NCBI GenBank assembly: GCA_963799845.1
Contig: CAWCYI010000006.1
Span: forward strand, 1,472,001-1,536,000
DNA from: an uncultured Nitrososphaerota archaeon
Lineage (GTDB): Archaea > Thermoproteota > Nitrososphaeria > Nitrososphaerales > CADDZS01
Length of the DNA stretch: 64,000 bases
Direction of reading: 5' to 3'
Shown: positions 2,988-51,523 of the stretch, piece after piece
Layout of the letters: each line of letters starts with the position of its first letter
How positions within the stretch are numbered: the stretch's first letter is position 1
The notes under the pieces: generated by a model
Told to the model about the DNA's origin: nothing
What the model saw: only the letters and a program-made list of their open reading frames with translations
Database searches by the model: none
Position numbers and translations under genes: made by a program

Positions 2988-3200
2988 GTGTCAGCTCCAG
3001 TGGAAAAGAAAGTTCCAGTAAACATGGATGAAGATCTCTATGTCCTACTAAAAAAAGCAATCATCGGAAGGGGTTTTGCGACGGTTGACGACTTCGTAAA
3101 TTACGTAATGCGCATAGCTGTTGGCAAAGAACATGTTGAACTTGATGAAGAAGATACGACGATAATAACTGCTCGATTAAAGGCCTTGGGGTATCTCTAG
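2988..3200 (+). CDS. CopG/ribbon-helix-helix small protein with C-terminal ARLKALGYL tail
   Basis: VPVNMDEDLY...GFATVDDFVNYVMR fits the RHH pattern; paralog of 51287..51523. Confidence 0.8.
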   Translation: MSAPVEKKVPVNMDEDLYVLLKKAIIGRGFATVDDFVNYVMRIAVGKEHVELDEEDTTIITARLKALGYL

Positions 3201-4655
3201 ATTCCAGAGATTCGAGGAAAAGGTTCCGTCGCCTTCGATCGATTTTCCGTCCAAGTACCCGGGCAAGGGTAGATTAAAGTAAGCAAGGACGGTTGGAACA
3301 ATGTCGTGCACTCTAGCACCGACCTGGATATCTGAGGCGGTCTTCGAGTATGAAATCAGAACTCCATTCCTTCGGTGAATTCCCTTCTTAGTGAATAGAG
3401 GCTTACCGATCAAATGCTTGTTGTTCCATCGAGTAGTATCAATCGAGAGACCGTCCGCGGCTTCGACAAGAAGTTTACCCGGAGCACTAGGCGTGTATTT
3501 TCCGTAGTAAATTTCAGCGGTCTTGAATACATTTTTCAAAAGGCCTTTTGCCCTGAGCTCTTGCAATTGCGAAACCAAAGACTCTTGACTTATTTCTGGC
3601 TCGTGCTTTTCTGAAATTCGAATCCAAGCAACAGGCTCATTAATGTTAAGAGCAGTGACCTTCGAAGTGCGTAATTGAGAAGCCTCGTCAATTACCATGC
3701 TCTTACGCAGGCTTTCCTTGCTTTTGTCCAACAACCAAGGAAAATGAAGAAGCACGAACTTGTACACTTTACTAGCGGAACTTGTCGAATCGCTTAGAGA
3801 ATCCCAATTCACTCCTAGGGACATGAGAATACGCGACACTAATGTCTCCGACGAATTTACGTAGCCCTTCGATCTCAACCATTCATTCATAAACAGCAAT
3901 TTCTCAACTCCTCGAAATCCATGATCAGATACAATAAGCAGCCTATCTTCTTTTTCCATTCTAGTTAGCATCGCTCCTAACAGTTGATCGAGCTGCTCGA
4001 ACATTTGATCAACAATTTCGAAATTTCCGTAACTTATATGAAGCAGATCATCTGGCAAACTGTCCACGATTATAACTGCATCCCAATTTTCAGAGTCCAT
4101 CATCTTTGTTGTTGTCGCGATTCTTCTCTTAAGATCGCTAATCATTCGAATTGAAATGGGTTCATAACCTTCGGACACTATCCTCTCGATATTTTGTTCA
4201 GTCGGCAAGTCCTCATACTCGAATCCCGAAAGATCATAGTTCGTTATGATGGTTTCGGGATAACATGAGATTTTCGGTACAAATCTTCCTGTCACGAAAA
4301 CTCCATTTACTTTCGGGGCTGGATATAGGAATGGAACTCCTAGAACTAGAACTCTCTTATTCGCCCAACTGAGATAATCCCACAAAAATGGAATGTCTGA
4401 AGATCCCATATTGGACGGAATGATTTTGTCATTTACAATCTCAAACATTTCAAAAATTCCATGCTTTCCAGGATTCACGCCGGAAAATAGGGTTGTCCAC
4501 GCGGGAGCAGTGACGTAGGGGTAGACTGACAGTAGATCGGAAGATTTTCCTTCGTTAAGCATTTTTTCAAAGTTCGGTAAACTTCTTCTCTTCATCGATT
4601 CGTCCAATACATTCAATGATGCCCCATCGAGACCCAACAAAAATAGAGTCATCAA
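3177..4655 (-). CDS. Alkaline-phosphatase superfamily, nucleotide pyrophosphatase/phosphodiesterase-type (COG3379-like) enzyme
   Basis: LGLDG, PYVTAPAWTTLFSGVNPGKHG (Thr nucleophile), VSDHGF, GIH and DIVPTVL motifs. Confidence 0.9.
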   Translation of the reverse strand: MMTLFLLGLDGASLNVLDESMKRRSLPNFEKMLNEGKSSDLLSVYPYVTAPAWTTLFSGVNPGKHGIFEMFEIVNDKIIPSNMGSSDIPFLWDYLSWANKRVLVLGVPFLYPAPKVNGVFVTGRFVPKISCYPETIITNYDLSGFEYEDLPTEQNIERIVSEGYEPISIRMISDLKRRIATTTKMMDSENWDAVIIVDSLPDDLLHISYGNFEIVDQMFEQLDQLLGAMLTRMEKEDRLLIVSDHGFRGVEKLLFMNEWLRSKGYVNSSETLVSRILMSLGVNWDSLSDSTSSASKVYKFVLLHFPWLLDKSKESLRKSMVIDEASQLRTSKVTALNINEPVAWIRISEKHEPEISQESLVSQLQELRAKGLLKNVFKTAEIYYGKYTPSAPGKLLVEAADGLSIDTTRWNNKHLIGKPLFTKKGIHRRNGVLISYSKTASDIQVGARVHDIVPTVLAYFNLPLPGYLDGKSIEGDGTFSSNLWNLEIPQGL

Positions 4656-4679
4656 AGTTCAACCATGTGAATTCAGATA

Positions 4680-5672
4680 CTAGAAAGTTACCTCTTTACC
4701 TTCACGCGATGACTCGTACAGCGCTTCAACCATCTGCAATACTCTTAGTCCGTCTCCCCCACTTGGTACTGGCTGCTCTCCCCTACGTATATGGTCCATA
4801 AAATCCCGAATCTCAAGCTCATGGGATCTTGGGGGCAGATCTGAATAGTCGTACAACGTAGTGTAATCCTCTCCTCTTTTGCCAAGCAATGTTTTGTTTG
4901 CTCTTCTCGAATCCGTAATGACAAAACCGTCAGTCCCGTATACCTCGTAATACATGTATCCGTACCATTCAATCCACGAAGACTGAATCAACGCTGTCTT
5001 GCCATTATTGTTTCGGTAAAGTGAAAATCCATTATCTTCTAGAGGCGCGACTGGCCAATATGATGTACTTGTCATCCCCATGCACTGATTCATGTCCCCT
5101 AGACTTATTCTGCAAATATCTAAGAGGTGACATCCATTATCCAAGAAGGTGCCGCCGCCCGCGGATTCAGAGTCCCAGAACCACCTTCCTTTTAGAAGAT
5201 CTCCATTATGCCCGATGGAACCTCTGAAGAATATCGGGTCGCCTATTTTTTTTGAACTAATTAATTCCAAAGATTTCATTACGTTAGGAAAATATCTATG
5301 GTTGGATCCGGTTTTCAGGAAACCTGAACTAGATTTTGCAGCTTCTACCATTAAGGAGGCTTCCTTGACGCTCCTTGCCAATGGTTTTTCGCACAAAACG
5401 TGTTTGTTATTTTTCAAAGCAGAGACAACGGCGAGAGGATGCATAATATTAGGTGTGCAAACTATAACACAATCTACCCTAGGATCAGAGACTGCATTCT
5501 CAATCTCAGTAGTAAACTTCGCATTGGCATTTTTAGCCGCCTCTAACCCCTTTTCCTTGTCCAAATCAACAATCCATTCAATAGTTGCATCTTCTATTTT
5601 CTTCAGAGAGTCGATTCGCTTAGAACCAAACCAGCCAACTCCAATAATGGCAAAGTGAAATTCGTCTTTCAA
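4680..5672 (-). CDS. Gfo/Idh/MocA family NAD-dependent oxidoreductase (NDP-sugar dehydrogenase-like)
   Basis: IIGVGWFG, HVLCEKPLA and GGGTFLDNGCH motifs. Confidence 0.92.
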   Translation of the reverse strand: MKDEFHFAIIGVGWFGSKRIDSLKKIEDATIEWIVDLDKEKGLEAAKNANAKFTTEIENAVSDPRVDCVIVCTPNIMHPLAVVSALKNNKHVLCEKPLARSVKEASLMVEAAKSSSGFLKTGSNHRYFPNVMKSLELISSKKIGDPIFFRGSIGHNGDLLKGRWFWDSESAGGGTFLDNGCHLLDICRISLGDMNQCMGMTSTSYWPVAPLEDNGFSLYRNNNGKTALIQSSWIEWYGYMYYEVYGTDGFVITDSRRANKTLLGKRGEDYTTLYDYSDLPPRSHELEIRDFMDHIRRGEQPVPSGGDGLRVLQMVEALYESSREGKEVTF

Positions 5673-5940
5673 CTCCAGTGCGCGGATTACGTTTCAAGTT
5701 TGATATATATTAATCCTAATTAGTTAAGAGCTAAATCTAAGACTGATTTAGATTATTTCTGTTGTTTCACTGTGACTGGAGAGTCTGTTCAAGTCCGCGT
5801 TTTTGTCAATCAGACCGGTGAACGAGAATGGGGAACACCCTTCTAATTTCCAACCTTTGCAAAAATGATGCCGTCCACCGCAGCATTTGAAGTCTGAACG
5901 TTTGGACGCGGTCATTCATCTCTTGTGTGTTTAGTTATGG

Positions 5941-8483: not shown

Positions 8484-9216
8484 GAGATCATCCGGAAATT
8501 GCTTAGTGTTAGCTAACAACATGGTCTAATCTCATGGCCCTTGCATCGTAATGGCCACCCTCGATAGATGAGATTTCCGATGACGAAACATCATTGAAGC
8601 AGATAACGCTAGAAGAGCAGCAACAACAAGAAGAGGATCTGGGCATCGACAAGCGCTATCAGATCCCAGACGAGCTATGGAAGAGAATTCAGGTGCTGAT
8701 TCCTCCACCCCCACCAAGGAAGAACAAGGACAGACCAGGGCGTCCGAGGATGGATAACTGGAAGGCTATGAACGCGATATACTACATTGCCAGGACTGGA
8801 TGTCAGTGGAAAGCCCTTCCAAGATCACTCGGAGCTCCAAGCACCGTGCACGACAGGTTTCAGGAGTGGAGAGAAGCCTACGTATTCGAAAACATGTGGA
8901 AGGAAGGCTTGCTCGAATACGATTGCAATGAAGGGGATCGAGTGGGAGTGGCAGGCTATTGACGGCGCTCTCACAAAGGCTCCTCTCGGGGGGAAAAAGC
9001 ACGGGACCAAATCCGACCGACCGATCGAAATCTGGCACAAAAAGAGAACTACTTGTTGACGGGAACGGAATACCACTCGCCGTGGCGGTTGCGGGTGCAA
9101 ACAGACACGACGTCTCTTGATTCGATGGGAAAAGAAAGAGGAAAACTACTTGGCGATGCTACATATTGCCTGCGCATTCATAACGTATGGTCAGACTGAA
9201 ATTTCCGGATGATCTC
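8484..9216 (+). mobile_element. Internally deleted IS5-family element (IS1031-like ends), non-autonomous
   Basis: Perfect inverted repeats (A)GAGATCATCCGGAAATT at 8483-8500 and 9200-9217, with TTA on both flanks (8481-8483, 9217-9219); transposase fragments inside. Confidence 0.9.
8594..9212 (+). pseudogene. IS5 transposase, frameshifted and missing the middle of the DDE domain
   Basis: GRPRMD...RTGCQWKALP...STVHDRFQEW; then WQAIDG; then GIPLAVAVAGANRHD joined directly to the C-terminal LIRWEKKEENYLAMLHIACAFIT. Confidence 0.88.
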
Positions 9217-21962: not shown

Positions 21963-24572
21963 ATGAACCCGGCAGCCGGCTGTAAAAGACATTTACCATC
22001 TCTTTACATGCTAATGGCGTTAGGTCTGCTATTAGGTTTCTTCGTTCTTTCGCTAACGGGCATCCACTCAGCTGCCCTAACCACCTCGTCGATCTCTTGT
22101 ATAACTGCAGAGGATGCACCTTCAGTGACCTTGAGCCTTTTGGTGAGCGGAAACGTAACAACGGTTTCGCCGACGAGCCTTGTTTGTAATGGAGTTTCTG
22201 TTTCTTTGACTCTTACAACAATGGAAAACGGAAAAGGAAATGTTTCAGTGGAAGTGCCTCCCCCCACCAATGTTTACATCAGAGACATTTTCCCTGGAGT
22301 TCTTCAGACGGAGCAAATCGCGACGTGCATATCCTCCGGATGCACCTTTTCGACAACTCGACTCTCCGTTTTCACCCAGGTCGAAGAGTTCTTCTCTTAC
22401 AAAATCTCAGGAGGGGGATCGGGGTACACTCCACCCACCCTCTTATACTACTACCAAGGCGCCCCCGATTCCACACCTCTAGGCACTGGTGTTTGGGTTG
22501 ATTGCTGCAGCTCCGACTGGACGGTGCCACGTACCCTAACGGGGTCGACTCTTTTGGAGCAATGGTCGGCGAACCCTGATGATACTGAAGGGATCGCATC
22601 CCCCGGTTCGGCAGGTTCTACTGTAGAAATCACCTACTATAATCAATATTCTCTGACCTCGAGCTTCACTGTGACCAGCGGGGCAGGATACCAGAATCCA
22701 CAATTGAGATATACGCAGTATGGTGGTTTGCAGCAGGTTCCGACAACGAGCTATCCTACTTCGTACTGGGCCGACGCGGGAACTCTGTGGAGCATATCCA
22801 GCACCCTGCCCGGTCCGACCCCTTCCGAGCAGTGGGCCGCCGCCCCAAATTCGGTTCTGTCGGGCACGGTTTCAGCGCCCGTGGCAATATCTCCCCACTA
22901 TTTCCACCAATACACGGTGATCGCTAACTACACCATTATCGGTACAGGAAGTTCTGGATACGGCAATCCTACATTTTTCTACACCTCGCTAGGATCCACC
23001 AATTCTACAACCTTGACGATGTCACCGGTAGAGTATTGGGTAGACGCCGCGTCCCAGTGGAACATTTCAAAAGCCCTTGCCGGGAACTCTACATTGCAAA
23101 GGTGGCAGACCAATCAACTGACGAGCGGGTCTGTAACCTCCGCTGAAAATATCACGATTGCGTACTACTGGCAGTACTTTGTCACATTCCAGTACTCGGT
23201 CGTTGGCGGCGGTGACAATTACATCACTCCGTCGCTGAACTATTCCCAGTTTGGGATAACGCTAGCAGGATCGCAGGGGCTGCAAGTATGGGCTGATGTC
23301 GGATCAAATTGCTCGTACACAAATCCTCTGATGGGGTCCACTTCGACCGAAAGGTGGTATGCAAGCCTGCCGACGTTGAGGGTATCGTCGAACACCGTCA
23401 ACGCGATGTATTACCACCAGTTCTCGTACTCGGCAAGTTACACGATCGTGGATGGCGGACAGGGGTACTCCAGCCCGATTTTTAGTTACACTTCTTTCGG
23501 AGCTTCCAATGAGACATTTCTGTCTACTTCAGCGACCACTTACTGGCTTGATTATAACACTCGCTGGGGTACGACTTCGCAGCTCAGCGGCTCCAACGCG
23601 ACGGAGCGATGGGCGACTAAGCAATTAGTTCAAGGTGTGGCAACAGCCCCGGCGAGCACTGAGTTTGGTTATTTCAACCAGTATGCTCTAACATTGAATT
23701 ACGAGGTCACACTCGGAGGCTCTCCACCAGCTCCGGCATTGAACTTAACTTCATTTGCGACGTCCAATTCTACTCACCTCAGCACGTCCCCGACCGTATA
23801 CTGGGTCGACGCAAGTACATCATGGTCGGTCACGAAAACACTCCAGCTCCAACCTAATGCTTCCTCGGAAAGATGGATAACGAATATGACGGTCTCTGAG
23901 GCGTCAGCTTCTGGCGCGTTTAACCAGACCATTGTGTATGATCATCGGTACTACCTCCTGGTTCAGCTGAACGACGCCCCAGGGGGAAGTTCCAACGCGG
24001 CCACTGGCTGGTACAACAATGGGAACAAGATTAACATCGCAGCGAGTGCCAATGCGGGTTGGGAATTTGTATCGTGGGACGGAGCAGGAAATTCATCCTA
24101 CACCGGTCCACAGAAGAACGAAACTGTTTCGCTGACTAGTCCAGCAAATGAAACTGCGATCTTCTACGCCGGTCTAGTGATTTATTCCGGTCCTAACGGA
24201 TCTGTAGAGTACAGTTACGGCAATCTGTCCGGAACTCAATCCGGGATCATCCAGCCGGGGACAAATGGAACAATCTTCGTTCTTCCCAATACTGGTGTTA
24301 ATCTCACAGAATCCCCATCAAGTGTACTCTATGTTTTCTACGGTTGGACCGGATACACAAAAGCTAACAGCGTAAGCGCTCTGATAGATGTCAATATTCC
24401 GAAATCGATTAAAGCTTCGTTTGTTCTGGATTATGCAGACATCACCGTTTTTGCGATTGTGACTGCGGGCGTGATCGTGCTGTCTTTCGGTGCATTTCCG
24501 GTACGGTTCAAGATTCGAGGCTTTTTTCTGAAAAAACGAGAAAGTTCCTCTTTAATTTCCGGTAAGGTTTAA
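21963..24572 (+). CDS. Secreted, membrane-anchored Thr/Ser/Tyr-rich surface protein with six ~85-90-aa beta-rich repeats and two InlB-B-like repeats
   Basis: N-terminal hydrophobic signal; repeats QY.v...Y.i.gGg.gY..P...Y...G....yW.Da...W......L.g.....rW; GWYNNG...AGWEFVSWDG; C-terminal TM with basic tail; many NxS/T sequons. Confidence 0.8.
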   Translation: MNPAAGCKRHLPSLYMLMALGLLLGFFVLSLTGIHSAALTTSSISCITAEDAPSVTLSLLVSGNVTTVSPTSLVCNGVSVSLTLTTMENGKGNVSVEVPPPTNVYIRDIFPGVLQTEQIATCISSGCTFSTTRLSVFTQVEEFFSYKISGGGSGYTPPTLLYYYQGAPDSTPLGTGVWVDCCSSDWTVPRTLTGSTLLEQWSANPDDTEGIASPGSAGSTVEITYYNQYSLTSSFTVTSGAGYQNPQLRYTQYGGLQQVPTTSYPTSYWADAGTLWSISSTLPGPTPSEQWAAAPNSVLSGTVSAPVAISPHYFHQYTVIANYTIIGTGSSGYGNPTFFYTSLGSTNSTTLTMSPVEYWVDAASQWNISKALAGNSTLQRWQTNQLTSGSVTSAENITIAYYWQYFVTFQYSVVGGGDNYITPSLNYSQFGITLAGSQGLQVWADVGSNCSYTNPLMGSTSTERWYASLPTLRVSSNTVNAMYYHQFSYSASYTIVDGGQGYSSPIFSYTSFGASNETFLSTSATTYWLDYNTRWGTTSQLSGSNATERWATKQLVQGVATAPASTEFGYFNQYALTLNYEVTLGGSPPAPALNLTSFATSNSTHLSTSPTVYWVDASTSWSVTKTLQLQPNASSERWITNMTVSEASASGAFNQTIVYDHRYYLLVQLNDAPGGSSNAATGWYNNGNKINIAASANAGWEFVSWDGAGNSSYTGPQKNETVSLTSPANETAIFYAGLVIYSGPNGSVEYSYGNLSGTQSGIIQPGTNGTIFVLPNTGVNLTESPSSVLYVFYGWTGYTKANSVSALIDVNIPKSIKASFVLDYADITVFAIVTAGVIVLSFGAFPVRFKIRGFFLKKRESSSLISGKV

Positions 24573-24609
24573 AATTCCAACTATCACTTTTATACAAGAA
24601 AGAAAGTTC

Positions 24610-25554
24610 TTGAAACGCTCTATATTGTTCTCTACAGCGTCGCTACTATTGATGATTCTTCTGGTCTTCAATAGTAATTCGGCGAGTGCCGCGACGTCGT
24701 GGGCCTCGGTGACTTCAATTCATGATCTAACAGGGGGTACGGCTGTCCAATCTGGACAGCCATTGATTGCAGGCCATTCGTACAACATTACATTCTTGAT
24801 AGCGGTTCCCTTCAATCAGACAAGTTCCCAGTTCCAGGTATCGCTCAACCCGCAATTGCAGCAGCAGGGGGCTCAATACTGGTATGTACTGACGCCCGGC
24901 TATTCCGGGTATGATTCTTCTAGCTTTACTGCTGGAGACAAGACCGTGAGTTTCACCCAGATTCAGGGTCAGCTAACACTTTCCGCGGAATTTCAGATAC
25001 CGGTTAACCTAACACTCAAAAGTGCCAGTGGACTGGTCCTTCACTTTCCGCAGAATGATTTTCAACTTATAACGGTGAGCGTGAGTGGCGGCTCGGTGGC
25101 GGGCAACGTCTCGCTTAACGTGCAAGACCAGACGATCGAAACCTATCTCAACACATACCAGTCAGATTCTAGGCTTATATCTTCTGGCACGATAGACAAG
25201 TCCTACTCGTCATTTGTCGATAACATTCTGAACCAATCTCAGTCGCTCTACAGTTCTGGTCTGGTATCACAGGCAACTAGCCTCCTCGGTGTGCTCACTT
25301 CCTCCACGTTCCCGGCCCCGTCTAACAGTTCTACCGAGACCTATCTCGGAGCTGGATTGGTGGTGGTTGTGATAATCGCCGTTGTTTTCGCTGTCATGGC
25401 GCTCCGGAAGAGAGGCCAATCCAGCGTCTCTTCGTCCGTGGTAGCCGACGTCCAGAAGGAGCTGGCAATGCTCGAGGTTACCGCATCAAGGTATGACAAG
25501 AACTTGGCTGAGAGGTTGAAAGCTTTGAGAGAGAGGTTGAATGATGTAGTATGA
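24610..25554 (+). CDS. Single-pass membrane protein: signal peptide, beta-rich ectodomain, TM, short cytoplasmic coiled coil
   Basis: MKRSILFSTASLLL...ASA signal; YLGAGLVVVVIIAVVFAVMALRKR TM; tail DVQKELAMLEV...LRERLN; ATGA overlap with the next gene. Confidence 0.8.
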   Translation: MKRSILFSTASLLLMILLVFNSNSASAATSWASVTSIHDLTGGTAVQSGQPLIAGHSYNITFLIAVPFNQTSSQFQVSLNPQLQQQGAQYWYVLTPGYSGYDSSSFTAGDKTVSFTQIQGQLTLSAEFQIPVNLTLKSASGLVLHFPQNDFQLITVSVSGGSVAGNVSLNVQDQTIETYLNTYQSDSRLISSGTIDKSYSSFVDNILNQSQSLYSSGLVSQATSLLGVLTSSTFPAPSNSSTETYLGAGLVVVVIIAVVFAVMALRKRGQSSVSSSVVADVQKELAMLEVTASRYDKNLAERLKALRERLNDVV

Positions 25555-28229: not shown

Positions 28230-28269
28230 GGACTCTTGAAAGGACAGCAATATCAGCCTCAACGGGTCT

Positions 28270-30635: not shown

Positions 30636-31698
30636 AGAGTCCGAGTCCACTGCACTACGCTTGATGTGCAGCAACTGTGGAGGCGCCATGTTGTACAAAG
30701 ACGCCTGCGTCCAGCAGCTCCAGAATTTGCCCAAGGTGGAGCCCCCTTTCGAAAAGGTTTCAGTGATCTTTGCTGGATTGCCAAAGTCATCACCATTGGA
30801 GGGAGAGGACAGGGGCGTTTACGCCGCGTCCATAGTTGCCGGGGACGACGAAATCGAAAAAGTAGAAACTTTCACGATGAGGAGGTCCGAAGGAACGAGC
30901 TGGTTTGATTTTTACTCAAAGTACCTCGACAAGCTCGGCAGATGGATGAAGTTTGTCGGCCTCGGCCGATCTCACTACAGACTTTTGGTGGTGGACACAA
31001 GGAGACCCATATCCGTGCTCGTTCTTGCTGCAATCTCGCAATTTGGGAAAAATACAATCGTTCTTATGGTAACAGCCGATCAGACATCCACGCTGATCGA
31101 ACAGAACACGAGCTATGTCGCCATATCTACCGCCCTAAAATATAGCTTTCCATTAATCGCAGTCTCCACCTCATACGTAGATGACCTGATTTTCTACACG
31201 GAAAACGATGGACTCGTTGTCCGTTCTCAAGCTCTTATGCCCGTAATACACCTCTTGGTTTCTTCAATCGACAGCGTCACGGATATGATGGGAAACGATG
31301 TGCGTCTGGGAATAAGGGAGCACTGTCTTTCTGCCATCCTGTCAGCGTCTGAAAAAGTCTATCCCTCGGTAGACGATGTGCTCTACACGCAAGAGTCAAG
31401 CTTTTCGATTAATGCAAAAAAGGCCGATGTTTCGACGGCGTACTTGTTAGCTTTCGCTCCGGTAGATGTCCTGAATAGAATCGACAAAGCATTCTCAAAG
31501 TACAGGAGACAGGAATTGAAGGACGTTATAGGTGCCGATCATCAGGGGTACCCGAGAGATATGGGTGCATCCTCTGCTTTCTACGACCTCATGATGATCT
31601 ACGGGATCAAGGAAGGATCCACGTTCGCGCCACTGAAGAAAGGGTACGAGTCGGTGGCGAGCAAGGTTTCCGATCTAAGTGTCGAGAAGGTGATGTGA
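30604..31698 (+). CDS. Zn-ribbon + degenerate tubulin/CetZ-like domain protein
   Basis: Start MSRIKCINGH...CSNCGG; IVLMVTADQTSTLIEQNTSYVAISTALKYSFPLIAVS parallels FtsZ S5-H5-S6; AYLLAFAP...GADHQGYP...LMMIYGI parallels the CetZ C-terminal domain; no GGGTG. Confidence 0.6.
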   Translation: MSRIKCINGHEESESTALRLMCSNCGGAMLYKDACVQQLQNLPKVEPPFEKVSVIFAGLPKSSPLEGEDRGVYAASIVAGDDEIEKVETFTMRRSEGTSWFDFYSKYLDKLGRWMKFVGLGRSHYRLLVVDTRRPISVLVLAAISQFGKNTIVLMVTADQTSTLIEQNTSYVAISTALKYSFPLIAVSTSYVDDLIFYTENDGLVVRSQALMPVIHLLVSSIDSVTDMMGNDVRLGIREHCLSAILSASEKVYPSVDDVLYTQESSFSINAKKADVSTAYLLAFAPVDVLNRIDKAFSKYRRQELKDVIGADHQGYPRDMGASSAFYDLMMIYGIKEGSTFAPLKKGYESVASKVSDLSVEKVM

Positions 31699-32511
31699 TC
31701 ACAATGAGCGAAGCTGTATTCGACCTTCAATCGGTGAAGTACCAGGGCAGGATACACAAGAAATGCACTCTCTACGTGAACGACGAGCGAAGCGAAGCCA
31801 AGATTCTGGCGACGAAAAACCGTATCTTTTTCATGAACCGTCAGCTGTACTTTTTGAATCGACCCGTTTCACTGCTGTCGTTTACATACGATGCGTCCAC
31901 TACGGTAGATGTCCAGGGACGGTTACTGACGGTCAACAAGGACATTTTGATGGAAGCAAGCGAGCAGGGTGAATCTACAAGGATCGCTGATCTGATGCTT
32001 CAGCCGAGGAAGGAGGCAGAGGTAAACTCCAGACAGTTACTTCTTCACGGCGAGGAGGCCATTCGAAGCTTTTTAGAAATAAGGGAGGAGGCGCTTGCCT
32101 TTTTATCCAACCTCCAGACTAATCCCAGAAAAACAATGCTGGAGCTTTCCACGCGGCTCGCAGAAGAGCAAGTCAATGATCCGATTGATGCGATGACGAA
32201 GCTGTACTTCGAGAGACTCGCAAAATCCATGGACGATCTCAATTTCAGCTATCTCTGAAGTTGAAACTCAGGTCGGAAAAGATCAGGCCAGCAGGTTGTA
32301 TGCCGTGCTTTATTTCATAGGAAAGCTGCAGGATGTTATTTTCGAAGGAAGAGATCCGAAGAAACTGGAGGTCCTGAAGGACTTTGCGCTCGAGCTTGGA
32401 TTTAATGAAACACTGATTGAAGGGCTCGAAAGAAAGAATGCTGACGACGACTTGCTAAATCTTTTCCGTAACATCCGTCTGATTTACTTGGCCCAGCCAG
32501 TATCGCAGTGA
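31695..32511 (+). CDS. Hypothetical protein, PH-like beta N-terminus plus helical C-terminus; frameshift near 32243
   Basis: GTGA overlap with the upstream gene; the alternate frame SAISEVETQVGKDQASRLY links 31695..32258 to 32296..32511. Confidence 0.65.
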
Positions 32512-37956: not shown

Positions 37957-38987
37957 TAGTCTGTGGCCCAATTCTCTTCGGTGATAATTTGACTCTTTGA
38001 ATCGATTGAATTGCTATTCGCTACACAGAAAGGAACCTGTTGTATAACATGACTTTCAGCGAAGCTTCGGCCTTCTGGGAGATGAATCTCTTAGAACGAA
38101 GAGCCTCTCCAAGCACTCTTTTGAACGAGGAGAAAATGATCTCTACGATCCACCTCTGACCATATTCCTTGAGCCGCTTCCAGCCTTCCAGCCCGAGTTT
38201 CTTTGTGAGTAGGGTTTCTTGTCTGCGAAGGGGAGAGCCTCTTGCAAGCGTCCCGGCATTTTTCCTGACCTTGATTGCTGGCTCTATTCCCATGTCATCC
38301 AGGACGTTGAAATTCTTTCGTGAATCGTACGTGGTGTCGGCATACGCCTTCTTGATTTTCGTTTTCTTCGACACTTCCTTTACGAGCGGAACGAACTTCT
38401 TCGAGTCGCCAGTGTGCTCAGATGTCACTCGAAAGCCCACGATCTTCTTTGTCTTCTTGTCAGCCATAACGTGCAGCTTGACGAATTTTTTCTTCTCCTT
38501 CGTCCACATTGCCTCTATGTAGGACCCTTTGCTAGTTGTTGAAAGCCCCGTTGAATCGACCACCACAGTGATCGGCTCCGCGTCGTCATCACGCGATTGA
38601 ATTATTATTTCCGAAGGCTTCTTTCCCTTCACGAGACGAACCATCCTCCTCCTTATCTGCGTGAAGCAGATGTCTCGTATAAACGAGATATACTCTGAGA
38701 GCGCGTCAACTGCGCCCTCGACCATCCTGTAAGGAATGTCAAATCCGACCTTGAGAAACGAGAGGAACTCGATGTATGAATTCGGGAAATCAAACGGTCT
38801 TCCAACCTTGTTCTTGTTCATCGAGGTGAGCTCTTTCTTCCACGAGCCTGCAAATCCCAGATCAAAGATGATCCTTCCTCGTTCCACCAAAGACTCGTTG
38901 TAATCGTGCCAGCACATTCCCAGAGGCATGCCTTGTAAGATAAGCAGGAAAGCTGAAAGCTTTCCTTCATGATTGGGCTACAAAGTA
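37957..38987 (-). mobile_element. Intact IS5-family insertion sequence (IS903/ISH1-like)
   Basis: Imperfect 16-bp TIRs (37957-37972 and 38972-38987, 13/16 match); 9-bp target duplication AATTGGTAC at 37948-37956 and 38988-38996. Confidence 0.92.
38021..38929 (-). CDS. IS5 family DDE transposase
   Basis: WHDYNESLVERG, VVDSTG, KLH, YADTTYDS and YGQRWIVEIIFSSFKR motifs. Confidence 0.95.
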   Translation of the reverse strand: MPLGMCWHDYNESLVERGRIIFDLGFAGSWKKELTSMNKNKVGRPFDFPNSYIEFLSFLKVGFDIPYRMVEGAVDALSEYISFIRDICFTQIRRRMVRLVKGKKPSEIIIQSRDDDAEPITVVVDSTGLSTTSKGSYIEAMWTKEKKKFVKLHVMADKKTKKIVGFRVTSEHTGDSKKFVPLVKEVSKKTKIKKAYADTTYDSRKNFNVLDDMGIEPAIKVRKNAGTLARGSPLRRQETLLTKKLGLEGWKRLKEYGQRWIVEIIFSSFKRVLGEALRSKRFISQKAEASLKVMLYNRFLSV

Positions 38988-45630: not shown

Positions 45631-47490
45631 TCAACTCGCGGCCACTGCGACAATCGGTTTGCTCCGCGTCTTCGGACGGAATATGTTGTCGGCAATGACA
45701 TTGGCAAACAAGAACACCGCGCATACGGCCAGAAATGCCGAAAGTATTCCGGTGTCAAAGCTCTGGATGTTGAACCAGCTCAAGAGGAAAAATGCCTGAG
45801 ACGTGAAATCATGCGGGTAGACTACTAGCAATAAACTGACGATTGCGTCTAGTATCCCGAGGAAAAGTTGCGAGCCCAAATATCCAAGCTCATAGACTAC
45901 GTACACAAGATATGAGATCACTATCCCCACCGATCCAAAGACTGCAACCGACGGACTGATGTCGTATATCGCGGCGCCAGCCGCAAAGCAGCTCACTCCT
46001 ACGATCAGCGGGAGGATGTCGAGCCGGCTCAAAGTCGAAAAGCTGTGCCCCCGGAGCCAGATAGCGGATAGAGAGATTATGCCCAAACTGATCAGTACGA
46101 GAAAATCCGTAATATCGATCAAAAAGTTCTGGTTTCCGAGAGCTAGTATCAGGATCGCGCCTAGCGTGAAAACGTACGACAGTCTTGAAATGCTCCGAGG
46201 AATAAACCCGTCAATGGCGAGCGCTTCCAAGTGTCTGGATGCAGCTAGAAAGGCGGGTACAAAAGTTGTAATTGTTGCGATGAGAAAGACGATGGCGGTT
46301 AACAGCTCCTGCCCGGGACCGATCGCAAGGTTACTTATGTAGAGAGCAGGAATTGAAGATTGATTCAGGGCGGCAAAGCTCGGATGGAGACTGAAAACTG
46401 CGAGGCCGTAAAGTATGTTGATTATCGACGCTATGACGACGCTTCCAACCATCGCCAGTCCGAGGTACTTGAACTTGGAAATCGTAAAACCCTTCTTGAT
46501 CCAGGAAATTATCGGCACTGATGAATAATCCAGCGCATCACGTTCAAGAGCCTGAATTTCCTGAAACCCGAAAAACAACAGGTAAAGATATCCAGTGTTA
46601 ACAACGAGAGCGAGGGGCCAGTTTCCCCCGGCCGAGCCGGTGTGGAAAATTCCCGAAAGATTCCAGGATCCCCTGTTGCCCAAGAGAATGCTCTGGTAGA
46701 CTAGTATTACCACCATCGCCGAAGTTAGAGCGATCTGTAGATAACCGATCAATTTGAGGAACCGGACTTCAAATAACGCATTTAGTACTGTCCACGCTAG
46801 GAAAACACCTGTGATCAGATAGACGATTATCGTCGAGGAAATCCCAGTTATTCCAAAATTTGCAAGTACTTGCGGCATCAGTTCGAAGTCAAATACAACA
46901 AAGACGATTTTCGAATACGCTGCAAGAGCGGTGTTAGCAATCCACATCGACAGGCGGGAGATAAAGTACCGCACGCTTCGTCCTCCAGTGGCCGCTTTTG
47001 TGAAGGAAGGCCCGCCGACAGCGCCGAGACCCATTCTGGCGGCCTCTGTATACATATCGGCATAGACTTTGGCCATCAGAACCGAAAGAATTGTTGCTAA
47101 TACTAGCGAACCAACAGAAACGAGTTCAAACTGAATTATGTTGAGGGGAATCAGGATGAAAAGAGGCGAGCCTAGAGTGGCTCCGAGTCCTATTGCGAGC
47201 ATGGTACTGAACCCATAGGTTGGTTTTACTACAGATTCCTTCCTTAGACGCTGGAAACGGACCCTCGTTGAGCTTGGGAGAGTCGCGATGAGCGCCACGC
47301 TCGAAAGAATAATTGCAACGAGGGCAGAAATTAGGATGATATCGCCAAATCCGAAATTCACTGAGGCGAGATACGAATATTCATTGACAACGAAAACTAG
47401 CGCAACAAACGCCGCAATGCTGCCTACGACGACTGCAAAGTACTTGAAGAATAGAATTCCATCGCGGAGTGAAGCAGCTCTGGAACCCAA
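45631..47490 (-). CDS. APC-superfamily amino-acid permease
   Basis: AIGLGATLGSPLF, GGPSF, FFGFQEI and ASRHLEALAIDGFIP motifs; many TM helices. Confidence 0.85.
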   Translation of the reverse strand: MGSRAASLRDGILFFKYFAVVVGSIAAFVALVFVVNEYSYLASVNFGFGDIILISALVAIILSSVALIATLPSSTRVRFQRLRKESVVKPTYGFSTMLAIGLGATLGSPLFILIPLNIIQFELVSVGSLVLATILSVLMAKVYADMYTEAARMGLGAVGGPSFTKAATGGRSVRYFISRLSMWIANTALAAYSKIVFVVFDFELMPQVLANFGITGISSTIIVYLITGVFLAWTVLNALFEVRFLKLIGYLQIALTSAMVVILVYQSILLGNRGSWNLSGIFHTGSAGGNWPLALVVNTGYLYLLFFGFQEIQALERDALDYSSVPIISWIKKGFTISKFKYLGLAMVGSVVIASIINILYGLAVFSLHPSFAALNQSSIPALYISNLAIGPGQELLTAIVFLIATITTFVPAFLAASRHLEALAIDGFIPRSISRLSYVFTLGAILILALGNQNFLIDITDFLVLISLGIISLSAIWLRGHSFSTLSRLDILPLIVGVSCFAAGAAIYDISPSVAVFGSVGIVISYLVYVVYELGYLGSQLFLGILDAIVSLLLVVYPHDFTSQAFFLLSWFNIQSFDTGILSAFLAVCAVFLFANVIADNIFRPKTRSKPIVAVAAS

Positions 47491-47520
47491 TACTCTTCCC
47501 CCCAGATTTTCAGTTTGATT

Positions 47521-48003
47521 CTAATTTCGAGCATCCTGTCGTTTTTGTTCCATGGCTTTTAGATTCGATGCTGCGATTCGAAGATTATAGAAGGCGCCTA
47601 TTAGAAGCAGGACCGCGATGATAAATTCGCCTACCGGTATTATCGGATTTGAAAGTGACTTTGGCGAGATCGTACTTGCGATCTGGCTAAAATACGAGGA
47701 TAGCTGACCGGGGGAGCTGAATCCTACTACCGACGGGGCAAGAAGCGCTAAACCGACTACTGCCAGAATGGAGGCAAGAACCATCTCACTGATGGCAATG
47801 AGGAGGGACGCCAATCCGCTTTCGGGCTTACGCGAGTTTATCATCGAGACAAACTTCACGATCTCCTCGTCGTGAGAAGAGACGATTTTTTCATTCACGA
47901 GAGTTTGTAACGAAGCATTTGAACCGCTGAGCAGCATCAGAGCTTTTATGTCCAGAAGGAGCCGGCTAAGTACTTCGTCTGTTGAACTCGCAGTGCTTGC
48001 CAT
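47521..48003 (-). CDS. Two-TM hypothetical membrane protein
   Basis: Two long hydrophobic helices; co-oriented with the permease. Confidence 0.7.
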   Translation of the reverse strand: MASTASSTDEVLSRLLLDIKALMLLSGSNASLQTLVNEKIVSSHDEEIVKFVSMINSRKPESGLASLLIAISEMVLASILAVVGLALLAPSVVGFSSPGQLSSYFSQIASTISPKSLSNPIIPVGEFIIAVLLLIGAFYNLRIAASNLKAMEQKRQDARN

Positions 48004-48114
48004 TCCGACCCACTTCGGGTCAGCAAGCGGAAATATCTCTTTCGTATTCGTAATATTCCGGAAATCTGAGCGCTAAGCTCCGATTAGTAAAATTTCGACG
48101 TGTTGTAGATTATC

Positions 48115-48690
48115 TTACAGCGAAAAGTTGAGATCTTTCAAACTCTCGATCAAGATCCTGGCAGATTCTTCAGGTGACCCGAGCTCAGTCGCTATCGTGA
48201 TGTCCGGAAACTCGGGTGGCTCGTAAGGATCCTGTATCCCGGTCATATTTTTGATCTCGCCCTTTCTCGCCTTTGCATACAGGCCCTTCGGGTCTCTCTG
48301 TTCGCAGGTAGCAAGAGACGCCTTGACGTAAACCTCAACGAACCTCTCCTTGCCAATAGTTTCTCGAGCACTCTCCCTCGAAACTTTGTACGGAGAAATC
48401 AGTGCGACTATTGAGATGACTCCATTTCGCGAAAGGACCTTTGCGAGATAAGACACTCTTCTGGCGTGTTCTTCCCTATCCTCTCTTGACAAACCAAGAT
48501 CTCTAGACAGGCCCTTTCTTATCTCATCCCCGTCCAAAATCTCAACAAAGCGACCGTAATCGTCCTCTAACATTTTCTTCAGAACGCCGGCCAGAGTAGA
48601 TTTACCGGAACCTGAGAGTCCGGTCATCCAGATTGCAAAGCCCTGTGGCCTCTGGGATTTTGAGCGCTCGCTTATCGCAACGCTGGTCAT
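48115..48690 (-). CDS. cysC: Adenylyl-sulfate (APS) kinase
   Basis: WMTGLSGSGKST, LDGDEIR, RDPKGLY and TGIQDPYEPP motifs. Confidence 0.97.
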   Translation of the reverse strand: MTSVAISERSKSQRPQGFAIWMTGLSGSGKSTLAGVLKKMLEDDYGRFVEILDGDEIRKGLSRDLGLSREDREEHARRVSYLAKVLSRNGVISIVALISPYKVSRESARETIGKERFVEVYVKASLATCEQRDPKGLYAKARKGEIKNMTGIQDPYEPPEFPDITIATELGSPEESARILIESLKDLNFSL

Positions 48691-48692
48691 GC

Positions 48693-50096
48693 TTAGGAGA
48701 ACACCTCAGGGATGACTTTGCCGTCCATCCCGTCTTCTGCTGGCATGCCGTACATTTTCAGAACCGTGGGAGCCATGTCTTCTACCTTCGCACCCTTCAA
48801 CGCTCTCGAATTCATGTTCTTTTTCGGATTGTACATTAGGAAGATACCCATCATGGAATGGACAGAGTCATCCGGCCCCGTATCATTCTCGAAAAGATAC
48901 AGCGAATCGTGCCCGACTGTACCTGCCGATCTCCAGTTGAGATCGTCAAAGTATACCATGAGATCCGGTTTATCTCCGATCGCTGTCCCATAAAGTTGAT
49001 CAGGTTCAAAAACCACGTTTTTCATCGGCCGCCCGTTGTTATCCTTTATCGACATGATTTTTGAGGAAAGTTTTTTCTTTTCGGTTTCGAGGTCTTTCCT
49101 TTCGATCACTCCGTTCGGCTCGCGACCCTTTACGTTAAAGAAAATTCTCGCGTAATAACCGCCCCAACCCCAAGCTTTCGTTCTGGACCAGTCGACTTCA
49201 GCCTTGTCGATGTCAGTCATCTTTGTCGGTTTTGTCTTGAACGCAATGTATCCCTCTTGCTCTAACCACTGATTTACGCAAAAGGCGCCAATCATTCCTT
49301 TTGAGCCGTGATCCGAGACGATGAAGGTGATGCAATCGTCTCCAAAGAGTTTCACCAGCCGGCCGATTCTCTCGTCGACCAACTTGTAGTATTCCTCGTC
49401 TAGGTGTTCGTACTGGTTACCCTTCACATACTTTGGATGCTTTGGGTCAAAGAACTTCCAGAAAGCGTGGTGCAGCCTGTCGAACCCAATTTCGTGCATG
49501 ATGAAAAAGTCCCATGGTTTGTTCTTTGCGAGATATTCAGCAACATCAAAGCGTTTTTGCGTCATTTCAAAGAGCTCCTTTCTAATGGCCTCCCTATCCT
49601 CCGTGCGAAAAGTTACGTCAAAAATATACTTCCCTCCGGCGGCGGCTAGTACTTCTTCCTTGAGCTCAGGTGGATTAGTGAATTGCTTGTCTTGACCTGG
49701 AGTAATAAAGCACGAAATGATATCAGTGTTCTCAATCTGCTTTGGTGGATATCCTGGCGGGACTCCAAGAACGATGGATCTTTTTCCTTGTCTTGAAAGA
49801 ATCTGCCAGACCGTGTCTTCCTTTACCGTAGTTGAATTGACTATGTATCCGTCGTTGTAAGAAAAACCTCTCCTATGCCTAAATCCGTAGATTCCCAGCT
49901 TGCCGGGATTTTTTCCCGTCATCATAACCATCCAAGCTGGAACGGTAATTGGAGGATGGCAGGTCTCAAGGTTTCCGTGCATGCCTCTGTCATACATTCG
50001 CTTTATGTTAGGAAGTTTGTCCAAGAGTTTGTCAAACATCATTTCAGGAGGGACGGAATCCAGCCCAATTATCGCTACTCGCTTTCCGCTGCTCAA
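48693..50096 (-). CDS. AlkP-superfamily NPP-type (COG3379-like) enzyme between sat and cysC
   Basis: IGLDS, PPITVPAW...TGKNPG, DRLHH, SDHG and DDSVH motifs. Confidence 0.9.
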   Translation of the reverse strand: MSSGKRVAIIGLDSVPPEMMFDKLLDKLPNIKRMYDRGMHGNLETCHPPITVPAWMVMMTGKNPGKLGIYGFRHRRGFSYNDGYIVNSTTVKEDTVWQILSRQGKRSIVLGVPPGYPPKQIENTDIISCFITPGQDKQFTNPPELKEEVLAAAGGKYIFDVTFRTEDREAIRKELFEMTQKRFDVAEYLAKNKPWDFFIMHEIGFDRLHHAFWKFFDPKHPKYVKGNQYEHLDEEYYKLVDERIGRLVKLFGDDCITFIVSDHGSKGMIGAFCVNQWLEQEGYIAFKTKPTKMTDIDKAEVDWSRTKAWGWGGYYARIFFNVKGREPNGVIERKDLETEKKKLSSKIMSIKDNNGRPMKNVVFEPDQLYGTAIGDKPDLMVYFDDLNWRSAGTVGHDSLYLFENDTGPDDSVHSMMGIFLMYNPKKNMNSRALKGAKVEDMAPTVLKMYGMPAEDGMDGKVIPEVFS

Positions 50097-50118
50097 TCCA
50101 ATGACCTTCTAGTACAGA

Positions 50119-51279
50119 TCATTCTACGAAAGGAGTCTTTGACTTCAGAATGATTTCTGATACTTCGGGGCGCATGAACTCTTTGGGCGGAGTCTCGCCG
50201 GATTGGAACATTTTCCTCAGTTTTGTCCCACTGAATGTCAATCTGTCAGATTCGGAATGTGGGCAAATCTTCTCATTCGCAATTCCGGCGCACTTGTTGC
50301 AGTAAAAGAATTCACGGAAAAATACGGCCTGGATGCCAAGATCCGGAAATTCCTTGAAAATCTCGTGCGCCGCATATGGGCCGTAATAATTCCCTACTCC
50401 CGCATGATCTCTGCCGATTGCAATGTGAGTACATCCAAAGTTCTTCCTCATAATTGCGTGCATTATTGCTTCTTTTGGCCCCGCATACTGCATCTCGTAA
50501 TGCAGTACGCTCAAAACGACAGAGTTCTTGGGGTAGTAATTCTTGACGAGCGCCTGGTATGTTTCTAGTATGACCTCGTCAGTGAAATCTCCAGCTTTTT
50601 TCTTCCCCAAGACGGGATTTATGAAAATTCCATCGGCGAAAGCAAGACCTGTCTTTTGTACATATTCGTGCCCTATGTGTGGTGCATTCCTAGTTTGAAA
50701 GGCAATGATCTCCTTCCATCCTTTTTCTTTGAAGAGTACTCTTGTTTCCTTTGGACTGAGGGTGAAATTCTCGAAAGGTCCTTTGTCGAACTTAACGACT
50801 GACTTTAGCCTTCCACCGACAACCCGATCAGATGATGCGTAAATTTTTGCTACGCCCGGATGCGCTTCGTCTTCAGTTCCGAATACCTTCTTGGCATATT
50901 CTTTCTTTGAAATCGAAAACAATTCTCCAAATTCGAGCAGCCCCACCGCGCGCCCGCCGTCATCAACCAATGTAATTTCATCGCTCGCCCCCGCGCTGAA
51001 ACTATCCGGAACGTGGAGCAAAACGGGAATCGTCCAGGGCGTATCGTCTGCGAGCCTCATGTTTTCAATCACGTTTTCGTAATCTGTCTTCCCCATAAAT
51101 CCGGTCAGTGGACTCAGGACACCGGTTGAAATGTTGAACATCTGGACCATTGTCTCATGCGAAACCTGAACGACCACGTTCTCTGCAAGCTCATTCTCCT
51201 TCTCTTGCGAACTTTCGATTGCCCTCACCTGGACAAGTCTTCCGCCGTGTGGAGATAACGACATACGAAAAACACCCAC
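50119..51279 (-). CDS. sat: Sulfate adenylyltransferase (ATP sulfurylase)
   Basis: PHGG, AFQTRNAPHIGHE, YAGPKEAIMHAIMRKNFGCTH, GRDHAGVG and SGTKLR motifs. Confidence 0.97.
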   Translation of the reverse strand: MGVFRMSLSPHGGRLVQVRAIESSQEKENELAENVVVQVSHETMVQMFNISTGVLSPLTGFMGKTDYENVIENMRLADDTPWTIPVLLHVPDSFSAGASDEITLVDDGGRAVGLLEFGELFSISKKEYAKKVFGTEDEAHPGVAKIYASSDRVVGGRLKSVVKFDKGPFENFTLSPKETRVLFKEKGWKEIIAFQTRNAPHIGHEYVQKTGLAFADGIFINPVLGKKKAGDFTDEVILETYQALVKNYYPKNSVVLSVLHYEMQYAGPKEAIMHAIMRKNFGCTHIAIGRDHAGVGNYYGPYAAHEIFKEFPDLGIQAVFFREFFYCNKCAGIANEKICPHSESDRLTFSGTKLRKMFQSGETPPKEFMRPEVSEIILKSKTPFVE

Positions 51280-51286
51280 TATTCCT

Positions 51287-51523
51287 CTACAAATAGCCCA
51301 AAGCTTTCAGCCTTGCTTTGATCTCTTCCACATCTGTACTCGTAAAAGGCTCGGGTATGTCTTTCGTCTCGTGCATCGCAACAACCTCTCTCAAGACATA
51401 GGTCACATAATCAGAGACAGATTTGAAACCGCTTTTCTTTATGATCATCTTTTCAATTCTATCATGCAAAGTGATCGGGATAGAAACCGTAGTGTATTTT
51501 GACTGGGTAGTAGTTTGAGGCAT
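51287..51523 (-). CDS. CopG/RHH protein with C-terminal ARLKALGYL tail, first gene of the sat operon
   Basis: YTTVSIPITLHDRI...GFKSVSDYVTYVLRE...EEIKARLKALGYL. Confidence 0.88.
   Translation of the reverse strand: MPQTTTQSKYTTVSIPITLHDRIEKMIIKKSGFKSVSDYVTYVLREVVAMHETKDIPEPFTSTDVEEIKARLKALGYL

Follow-up and report, generated by a model that had tools for sequence, protein, structure and literature searches.

The window analyzed here is a 64,000-nucleotide stretch of the genome of an uncultured Nitrososphaerota archaeon, and toward each of its two ends lies a small open reading frame (ORF) that encodes a predicted ribbon-helix-helix (RHH) protein. The two proteins are divergent paralogs (27 of 66 residues identical, 41%; BLASTP E 5e-10), and both end in the same nine residues, ARLKALGYL. 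One of them (2988..3200) belongs to a glycan cluster, where the last 24 nt of its gene are shared with the 3′ end of a convergent AlkP gene, 3177..4655(-); the other (51287..51523) heads a minus-strand string of genes in the order RHH, sat, AlkP, cysC. The two AlkP proteins of the window share 25% of their residues with each other, and neither carries an LGY tail: the product of 3177..4655 ends in ...DGKSIEGDGTFSSNLWNLEIPQGL and that of 48693..50096 in ...DGKVIPEVFS. The original prediction, made from the letters alone, had pointed to the identical endings on diverged proteins, to the overlap on one side and the operon on the other, and to the two tail-less enzymes; alignment, coordinates and Pfam matches agree with all of this. 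Our reading of the small proteins, to which we assign a probability of roughly 0.65, is that they are autoregulators of a sulfate-activation regulon whose C-terminal tail serves as a module for a partner or a signal. Coordinates of the features are collected in Table 1.

The assignment to the RHH fold draws mainly on structure prediction. The AlphaFold model of the sat-operon protein (predicted local distance difference test score, pLDDT, 77.5) has an extended segment at residues 10–16, helices at 17–30 and 36–54, a weak linker and a last helix at 62–75, and an N-terminal strand followed by two helices is the arrangement that defines the fold. RHH proteins dominate its structural matches in a wide VIA-align comparison (most of the top 30 rows, Z 3.7–5.3), among them ParD, Bacillus MazE, KacA, PrpA, CopA, omega, NikR, PutA, ORF56 and Arc. 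A Foldseek search of the PDB with the same 78-residue model returned nothing at E ≤ 0.001, and the best PDB matches of a profile of the family were the RHH domains of NikR (E 0.04–1.4). Relatives carry generic database names such as “Arc/MetJ-type RHH regulator” and “ribbon-helix-helix domain-containing,” and clusters in the ESM Atlas are labeled “CopG family.” We file both ORFs as a probable divergent branch of the small NikR/CopG/Arc-like RHH family, one that escapes Pfam.

The tail is a trait of the family as a whole. A word-indexed search with the sat-type copy gave 582 homologs at E ≤ 1e-3; the best 120 all end in LGY plus one residue, most commonly as ARLKALGYL (39 of 120). When 1.84 billion cluster representatives were searched exhaustively with the family profile, 1700 proteins were found at E ≤ 1e-3 and 388 at E ≤ 1e-10, and 141 of the best 150 representatives (50% identity) end in LGY plus one to three residues; the profile contained the tail and thus favors tail-bearing matches, with most of the score coming from the body. 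The Tyr is invariant among tail-bearing homologs, as the original prediction had supposed, and is followed by one residue in 80 of the 141 tails, by two in 55 and by three in 6. Over its full length the module follows the pattern [FLY][ST]xE[DE]EEK[VI]KERL[RK][AS]LGY[LIM], often with D or E after it. The residues around the Tyr, R-L-[RK]-[AS]-L-G-Y-[LIM], are basic or hydrophobic and not acidic, and hydrophobic positions are conserved at −7, −3 and 0 relative to the Leu of LGY, as well as at +2 and +3 (Tyr, then L/I/M). We read this pattern as that of a self-contained amphipathic helix, which would have a Ser/Thr-x-x-Glu N-cap following a hydrophobic residue, a Gly C-cap, and an acidic tether to the rest of the protein.

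The architecture around the module varies. It is doubled or internal in some proteins (P0242, P0268), and some chains hold two or three RHH-LGY units. Forms of 207–237 residues (P0255, P0281, P0312, P0324, P0344, and L120:1498-2211) consist of a canonical N-terminal RHH domain (DUF7557/RHH_10-like), a domain of about 100 residues that has no known family, and an RHH-LGY unit at the C-terminus; some stand first in a sat operon. The glycan-cluster paralog belongs to a conserved subfamily ending in ..T[AS]RLKALGY[IL]. The 24 nt that it shares with the convergent AlkP gene (window 3177-3200) hold the last eight codons, stop included, of the RHH gene, the LGY end among them, and on the opposite strand the last eight of the AlkP gene. 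The same 24-nt sharing is seen in three loci, namely the window, a second locus of the same genome (L001:6312-6335) and L109:2929-2952, and the RHH proteins of the latter two belong to the same subfamily.

Within the genome (4.6 Mb in nine contigs, 86.7% complete; the window is C6:1472001-1536000), the module is rare. A six-frame scan of 59,476 ORFs of at least 40 residues found an acidic linker followed by a terminal L[RK]xLGY in just five, and a profile of the 24-residue tail found the same five at E ≤ 2.5e-7, the next match having an E of 0.13. Four of them are RHH paralogs (the window pair, C4:636312..636539 and C6:1552905..1553228), and all four of these genes adjoin one of the six PF01663 genes of the genome. 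In the fifth, the tail stands at the end of a PF01663 gene itself (C4:1006995..1008504, ending in ..DNLRRLGYT). The sixth PF01663 gene (C4:58709..59983), of another type, has neither a tail nor an RHH neighbor. The identity of the two window tails is thus neither a matter of chance nor special to this pair, and we attribute it to purifying selection on the tail module. The suggestion that the two ends of the window form one pathway is not supported: they are two of four RHH–AlkP pairs dispersed in the genome, not one cluster.

Two further genes of this genome vary the theme. C4:1006995..1008504 (L002:4995-6504), its only tail-fused PF01663 gene, is interrupted near ..GAETR, where the frame shifts by one base; this could be an assembly error or the mark of a pseudogene; intact orthologs of about 500 residues exist (P0391–P0478). 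A fifth RHH paralog (C6:1549585..1549845; L003:4585-4845) ends in ..EEIKSYSLYP, not in LGY. It flanks an AlkP gene that has an RHH-LGYM copy on its other side, and the order RHH-LGYM, TauE, AlkP, RHH-SLYP is kept in three relatives (L092, L100, L101). The AlkP beside the SLYP-ending protein ends in ..QRVLRSGKMRI, which may be a decayed tail.

To describe the fused form we used the intact AlkP of a related genome (L014:1897-3399) as query. Among the 120 homologs closest to it, 101 end in LGY plus zero to three residues and show the motif [FY]xFSExEEKxVMxNLxRLGYT; several of the others end in IGY or MGY, and the rest are fragments. A premise of the original prediction, that many sulfatase- or NPP-like enzymes end in such a tail, is borne out by this count. 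Bacterial AlkP proteins also carry the module, at the end of two tandem genes in L153 (..LRSLGYIK) and internally, with more sequence after it, in L150. The tail is absent from all 120 closest homologs of the sat-operon AlkP. In an alignment of 33 tails from both scaffolds, those of RHH and of AlkP proteins are alike over about 20 residues, in keeping with the proposal that the tail is a separate module, found on a DNA-binding scaffold here and at the C-terminus of AlkP elsewhere. The AlphaFold model of a fused enzyme has a pLDDT of 86, and its tail forms a helix (residues 485–497, pLDDT 46–71) after a disordered linker. A predicted complex of the sat-type AlkP with the sat-type RHH protein scored 0.15 and 0.12 against a mark of 0.32, and we count it neither way.

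A shorter LGY ending is found on CysD-like proteins. Six archaeal examples encoded beside RHH-LGY genes (L118:167-1018, L126:2100-2936, L042:6197-7024, L044:6234-7028, L046:6232-7056, and L058:1830-2639) end in ..GRAQDKExAYMMQKLRxLGYM, and a seventh (L048:6241-7095) has the motif followed by about 15 further residues. In the solved CysD of P. syringae (1zun_A), the counterpart of the LGYM stretch in the alignment is the terminal ..KKRQGYF. The LGYM stretch resembles the module over about 10 residues only and scores 9–11 bits with the tail profile, for which reason we keep the CysD end as a lead: it may be a third scaffold with an LGY ending in sulfate-activation loci. The accessible portions of PMC5770160 and PMC4373884 make no mention of the CysD C-terminus.

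The genomic surroundings of the family point to sulfate activation. We sampled the best 80 of 303 RHH relatives, taken from one genome per prokaryote species with a 24-sequence alignment; because the scan pattern was the tail and the ranking was by likeness to the sat-type copy, these 80 loci are biased toward sat-type orthologs. They come from Nitrososphaerota, Geothermarchaeota, Korarchaeia, Asgard, Micrarchaeota, Hadarchaeota, Thermoplasmatota, Woesearchaeota, Methanosarcinales, Aminicenantes, “Eubacteriales,” Thermodesulfobacteriota, and others. A COG3379-type AlkP gene lies within 6 kb in 62 of the 80, sat in 59, cysC in 56, and all three in 49. Nine loci have none of these genes: five are operons of the type RHH-cysD-cysN, in which cysD and cysN encode the second kind of ATP sulfurylase, a sixth carries a sulfotransferase-like gene, and the last three are short contigs, contig ends or neighbors of a transposase. 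Genes of sulfate activation or sulfation (sat, cysC, AlkP, cysDN or sulfotransferase-like) are thus found nearby in 77 of the best 80 loci. Some of the RHH-cysD-cysN operons also include a TauE or MFS gene along with a short ORF that is Phosphodiest-like. Three such ORFs of 229–241 residues after cysD-cysN (L042:8225-8911, L044:8725-9432, and L046:8311-9033), with a G[IL]D start and an SDHG motif, look like a minimal AlkP core; two match PF01663 weakly, and the one in L044 matches nothing in Pfam.

No tail is present on any of the 57 complete AlkP ORFs that lie within 2 kb of an RHH-LGY gene. In 12 relatives of the window's genome (leaving out that genome itself, G001, one fragment and four genes of another PF01663 type), an RHH-LGY gene lies within 1.5 kb of 12 of 16 tail-less COG3379 genes, compared to 0 of 3 tail-bearing ones. 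Across 200 genomes of the phylum, searched with a profile of the full-length RHH protein, tail-bearing RHH proteins occur in 22. A strong sat-type AlkP (E < 1e-100) is encoded in 20 of the 200, and 18 of these are among the 22; the other four come from the remaining 180 genomes, and in three of the four the RHH gene lies beside a CysD-like gene. The full-length profile was used here as a scan with the tail alone proved insensitive, four of five rechecked “negatives” having an RHH-LGY gene. These co-occurrence counts show an association and are not a test statistic, given the non-independence of related genomes and the small number of AlkP subfamilies. That RHH-LGY genes would associate with sat and AlkP loci had been predicted, and the numbers uphold it.

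About 25 nt upstream of the start codon of sat-type RHH genes lies a 16-bp palindrome with the consensus TAATTATATATAATTA. In the window it is 23 nt from the ATG of the RHH gene, over the expected TATA box. The orthologous upstream regions have wholly diverged apart from TAATTATATATAAT(TA). Of 79 loci, 35 have a site with at most 3 mismatches in the upstream 130 nt, all 35 being among the 46 of L005–L051, against a background of 15 of 5694 windows in the same loci. The palindrome is kept across archaeal phyla, and in some loci both half-sites are altered symmetrically, to TAATTACATGTAATTA in L031 and L033 and to TAATGATATGTCATTA in L049. Tandem copies occur as well: two in L023 and L024, and three at 10-bp spacing in L050. 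The window's own genome has only two sites with at most one mismatch, one at the sat operon and one at C4:1019402, 39 nt upstream of an operon encoding an NMT1-type binding protein, an ABC ATPase and a permease; a two-mismatch site lies 33 nt upstream of a TauE gene. Additional palindromes in other genomes precede a TauE-type permease gene (L016) and the gene of a membrane-anchored, Ser/Thr-rich protein that resembles a substrate-binding protein (L017, L019, L020). The palindrome is long, dyad-symmetric, rare in the genome and found again before sulfur-transport genes, and for these reasons we take it as a putative operator overlapping the TATA box, which fits the original proposal that the RHH protein could tie sulfation to transcription.

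The NMT1/ABC operon, which bears the genome's second-best palindrome site, has a tail-less RHH paralog (C4:1016248..1016460; L142:2248-2460; KYVAVNIP...GFISATDYMTYVLR...) as its last gene.

In the mechanism that we propose, two RHH dimers would bind the two TAATTA half-sites of the promoter palindrome, which lie 10 bp apart. Bound over the TATA box, they would shut off the transcription of RHH, sat, AlkP and cysC, and the regulon would extend to the TauE-type permease gene and the NMT1-type ABC transporter operon, each with the same element upstream. The tail would act as a tethered docking helix that couples the repressor to an AlkP enzyme or to the state of the pathway, by analogy to RHH antitoxins. 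A docking helix is its most likely role because the module ends COG3379 AlkP proteins in cis, and RHH-LGY genes adjoin AlkP genes that lack it. Likewise, AlkP is the first candidate for the partner of the tail because in this genome the module is limited to RHH and AlkP proteins, and the adjacent AlkP proteins are without it.

Several results weigh against the interpretation as tailed autoregulators or against one of its parts. As to the fold, the structural matches have middling Z scores (3.5–5.3), Pfam assigns no family to either RHH protein of the window at E ≤ 0.01, and among 60 family members it assigns (E ≤ 0.01) only eight to RHH_1, one to Arc and one to CopG_antitoxin. As to the operator, part of the conservation of the palindrome may be that of a promoter because it sits exactly at the TATA box expected for a leaderless archaeal transcript. 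Bacterial orthologous loci share the strand motif TVSIP and have a conserved sigma-70-like promoter and no palindrome, and the 160 nt upstream of the glycan-cluster copy and of the L001 paralog contain no inverted repeat of at least 6 nt. As to contact between tail and enzyme, AlphaFold leaves the cis tail of a fused AlkP undocked, outside the active site; RHH-LGY genes also head cysDN operons in which the only AlkP-like gene is an ORF of 229–241 residues (Phosphodiest-like) or nothing matches PF01663; and the pattern of the tail being either in cis or in trans represents few independent cases because few AlkP subfamilies underlie it.

One rival explanation dispenses with contact between RHH protein and enzyme; in it the tail is a self-association helix that assembles RHH dimers into tetramers or larger units for cooperative binding, and AlkP proteins into oligomers of their own. 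An amphipathic, capped helix would suit this role, NikR, Arc and MetJ all tetramerise through extra contacts, and the two half-sites 10 bp apart, the arrays of two or three sites, the chains with two or three RHH-LGY units and the retention of the tail in cysDN-type operons without a full-length AlkP are all in line with it. It leaves unexplained why an unrelated enzyme family in the same loci should have the same 20-residue module, the FSxEDEE part included, and why the tail is found in none of the 57 adjacent AlkP proteins; we regard it as unlikely, if the strongest of the rivals. Similarity of the enzyme and RHH tails could also be convergent, the RHH proteins being ordinary CopG-like regulators and the tail a helix-cap motif without a sulfur-specific role, like the L..LGY of peptidoglycan-binding domains. 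The tail does match Pfam PG_binding_2, PG_binding_1 and POTRA weakly, which shows L+xLGY to be a recurrent helix-turn motif. Yet the likeness spans about 20 residues and not 5, the tail profile matches these two kinds of protein alone in the window's genome, and the two families co-occur in the same loci and genomes, which makes mere convergence quite improbable.

Two other explanations give the tail a chemical role. The original prediction had proposed that the tail Tyr is sulfated by the AlkP linked to 3′-phosphoadenosine 5′-phosphosulfate (PAPS) and acts as a mobile aryl-sulfate donor for other AlkP proteins, such as the enzyme of the glycan cluster, by analogy to the Tyr-based acyl relay of DltX. 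DltX, too, is small, has a C-terminal Tyr that is conserved and is encoded next to the enzymes of a modification pathway; it differs in that the proteins here are predicted to be soluble and DNA-binding and have a promoter palindrome. The invariance of the Tyr, its place on a flexible acidic linker, the association with sat, cysC and AlkP, and the presence of sat and cysC in a genome with no canonical sulfotransferase or PAPS reductase detected would all suit a carrier, as would the parallel with the sulfo-carrying Cys tail of PAPS reductases, whose relative in fold, CysD, ends here in ..LGYM. However, known tyrosine-sulfation sites are acidic, and the neighbors of this Tyr are basic or hydrophobic; the one to three residues after it vary in number, and the module can be internal (P0242, P0268, L150). 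What is invariant, L..LGY[LIM] and the cap residues, is what a docking helix needs. The DNA-binding fold, the conserved palindrome, the cysDN operons without a full-length AlkP and the undocked cis tail speak against a carrier as well, and no protein of the tyrosylprotein-sulfotransferase type (PF13469/PF00685) is matched in the 86.7%-complete genome, although the proposal invokes AlkP for that step. We set the carrier aside as the least probable of the explanations, very improbable overall. Alternatively, the tail, alone or with the RHH body, might sense adenosine 5′-phosphosulfate (APS), PAPS, 3′-phosphoadenosine 5′-phosphate (PAP), sulfate or sulfite and so set the activity of the repressor, forming on AlkP and CysD a lid over a sulfonucleotide site. 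The module does appear on three scaffolds of sulfate activation (RHH, COG3379 AlkP and, in shorter form, CysD), and a regulon of sat, cysC, TauE and an ABC transporter is typical of sulfur regulons under metabolite control. A helix of 14 residues is small for a specific ligand site, and the CysD likeness amounts to just 9–11 bits; sensing by the tail appears improbable.

The two AlkP proteins of the window match PF01663 with 95.4 and 146.5 bits (cut-off 23) and resemble the “predicted AlkP superfamily phosphohydrolase/phosphomutase” proteins of PF01663/COG3379 in that Pfam match; a fused relative has the NPP fold, and candidate metal ligands and a Thr are invariant in the sat type. In an alignment of 40 sat-type AlkP sequences, D13, T51, D206, H210, D262, H263, and H413 are invariant, residues that we take to be the metal-site and nucleophile positions of NPP enzymes. 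Foldseek superposes the model of this fused relative on ENPP1/3 and Xanthomonas NPP (E 5e-17). No close solved or characterized relative was found, the best PDB sequence match having an E of 2.5e-5, and the literature searched for COG3379 turned up only unrelated work.

The genome contains sat and cysC, and searches of it at 86.7% completeness found no match to PF13469 or PF00685 (sulfotransferases) or to PF01507 (PAPS/APS reductase), with control searches responding; those for PF03567 and PF17784 were uninformative, the control genomes being equally silent. Because sat and cysC are present and no known PAPS consumer was detected, the COG3379 AlkP proteins, both the operon-encoded one and its paralogs, are candidate users of PAPS and might act as sulfotransferases or as PAP phosphatases. 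A more far-reaching proposal, which we hold to be unlikely when taken as a whole, is that the LGY helix is a portable docking module that links COG3379 AlkP proteins to a dedicated RHH repressor as an enzyme-gated switch, from Nitrososphaerota to Aminicenantes, and that COG3379 is the missing PAPS-using enzyme, either a sulfotransferase of new fold or a PAP-recycling phosphatase. In PAPS reductases, which share their fold with CysD, a C-terminal tail that is flexible bears the sulfo group on its Cys. In a bolder variant of the proposal, the LGY tail would enter sulfonucleotide active sites as that Cys tail does, and the ..LGYM end of CysD would be its ancestral form.

With NikR, CopG, Arc and MetJ the RHH-LGY proteins have in common the predicted strand-helix-helix core, the NikR matches in the PDB and a dyad site in their own promoter; they differ in having no Pfam RHH match in the window, in a DNA binding that is predicted and in a regulon of sulfate activation. 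Where NikR has a metal-binding domain, they have an acidic linker and LGY helix of 24 residues that is common to an enzyme family. The same architecture is found in RHH antitoxins (ParD, RelB, Bacillus MazE, FitA, TacA), which also combine an N-terminal RHH domain with a flexible C-terminal helix and supply the top full-length structure matches (5ceg_A, 4me7_F, and 6xrw_D; Z 4.8–5.3). In these antitoxins the helix binds the product of an adjacent gene as its partner and modulates binding to the operator. The neighbors here are Sat, AlkP, CysC or CysDN and not toxins, and the C-terminal module is far more conserved. Identity as a type II antitoxin was rejected, with sulfate-activation genes as neighbors in 77 of 80 loci and no toxin family beside the window copies; because no toxin gene is present, we treat the likeness as an analogy of architecture and not as membership.

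Control of a sulfur-regulon repressor by a pathway enzyme has a precedent in CymR-CysK, and in both CymR-CysK and CysE-CysK a C-terminal tail docks into the enzyme. The likeness lies in the possible control of a repressor through enzyme docking; the families are unrelated, and there the carboxylate of a terminal Ile is essential. CysK-type docking by a terminal Ile was rejected for the LGY tail, which is often trailed by D or E or is internal. We also rejected a proteasome-docking C-terminus of the HbYX type. That signature is hydrophobic-Tyr-X at the extreme C-terminus, in organisms with proteasomes; here the residue before the Tyr is Gly, only 80 of 141 tails have the Tyr in penultimate position, and the module is internal in places and present in bacterial phyla such as Aminicenantes.

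Taken with its candidate operator and with a tail common to an uncharacterized enzyme clade, this RHH regulator family of sulfate-activation operons is a widespread and real feature. The literature searched, at abstract level, contained no description of an RHH-LGY regulator. If our reading is right, archaea and several bacterial phyla control sulfate activation through this widespread family, whose operator is then defined as well, and a 20-residue module common to a transcription factor and an enzyme family offers a handle for finding the binding partner. It would also mark the AlkP-fold proteins of COG3379 as candidates for a step of PAPS metabolism that is still unassigned in organisms where no known PAPS consumer can be detected.

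Table 1. Features of the window discussed in the text, in order of position.
Position	Strand	Feature	Evidence
2988..3200	+	RHH-LGY paralog, glycan cluster	ORF call, 70 residues, GTG start, ends ARLKALGYL
3126..3197	+	24-residue tail module of glycan-cluster paralog, KEHVELDEEDTTIITARLKALGYL	Alignment of 33 tails; tail profile E 9.4e-8
3177..4655	-	Tail-less PF01663 (COG3379-type AlkP/NPP-fold) gene, glycan cluster	PF01663 6.6e-27
48115..48690	-	cysC (APS kinase)	PF01583 6.1e-61
48693..50096	-	Tail-less PF01663 (COG3379-type) gene between sat and cysC	PF01663 1.9e-42
50119..51279	-	sat (ATP sulfurylase)	PF01747 9e-92; PUA_2 3e-41
51287..51523	-	RHH-LGY paralog, first gene of sat operon, candidate autoregulator	ORF call, 78 residues, ends ARLKALGYL
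51290..51361	-	24-residue tail module of sat-operon paralog, DIPEPFTSTDVEEIKARLKALGYL	Alignment of 33 tails; tail profile E 7.7e-10; predicted helix, residues 62–75
51547..51562	.	Candidate operator, 16-bp palindrome, TAATTATATATAATCA on minus strand	Kept in orthologous loci
52125..53102	+	ComA (phosphosulfolactate synthase) with C-terminal extension	PF02679 2.1e-63

Expression data touch the operon at one point: in one run of a peat metatranscriptome, a single contig of 268 nt is identical to positions 50670..50937 of sat, and it covers no RHH gene. After cysC, two more minus-strand ORFs (window 45631-48003) encode proteins of 619 residues, with hydrophobic, multi-pass features, and of 160 residues, both without a Pfam match; they may be further members of the operon, for instance a transporter. 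The comA gene is divergent from the RHH-sat operon, and the C-terminal extension of its product has a weak match to MarR_2 (9.5e-4), which falls under the cut-off.

Elsewhere in the window, genes for insertion sequence-type transposases (DUF4096; DDE_Tnp_1) lie inside the glycan cluster (8594-8962) and at mid-window (38021-38929). A plus-strand string of large ORFs, almost without Pfam matches, occupies 21963-32258 around a protein of 892 residues with a tubulin-like N-terminus (Tubulin_2, 1.5e-11).

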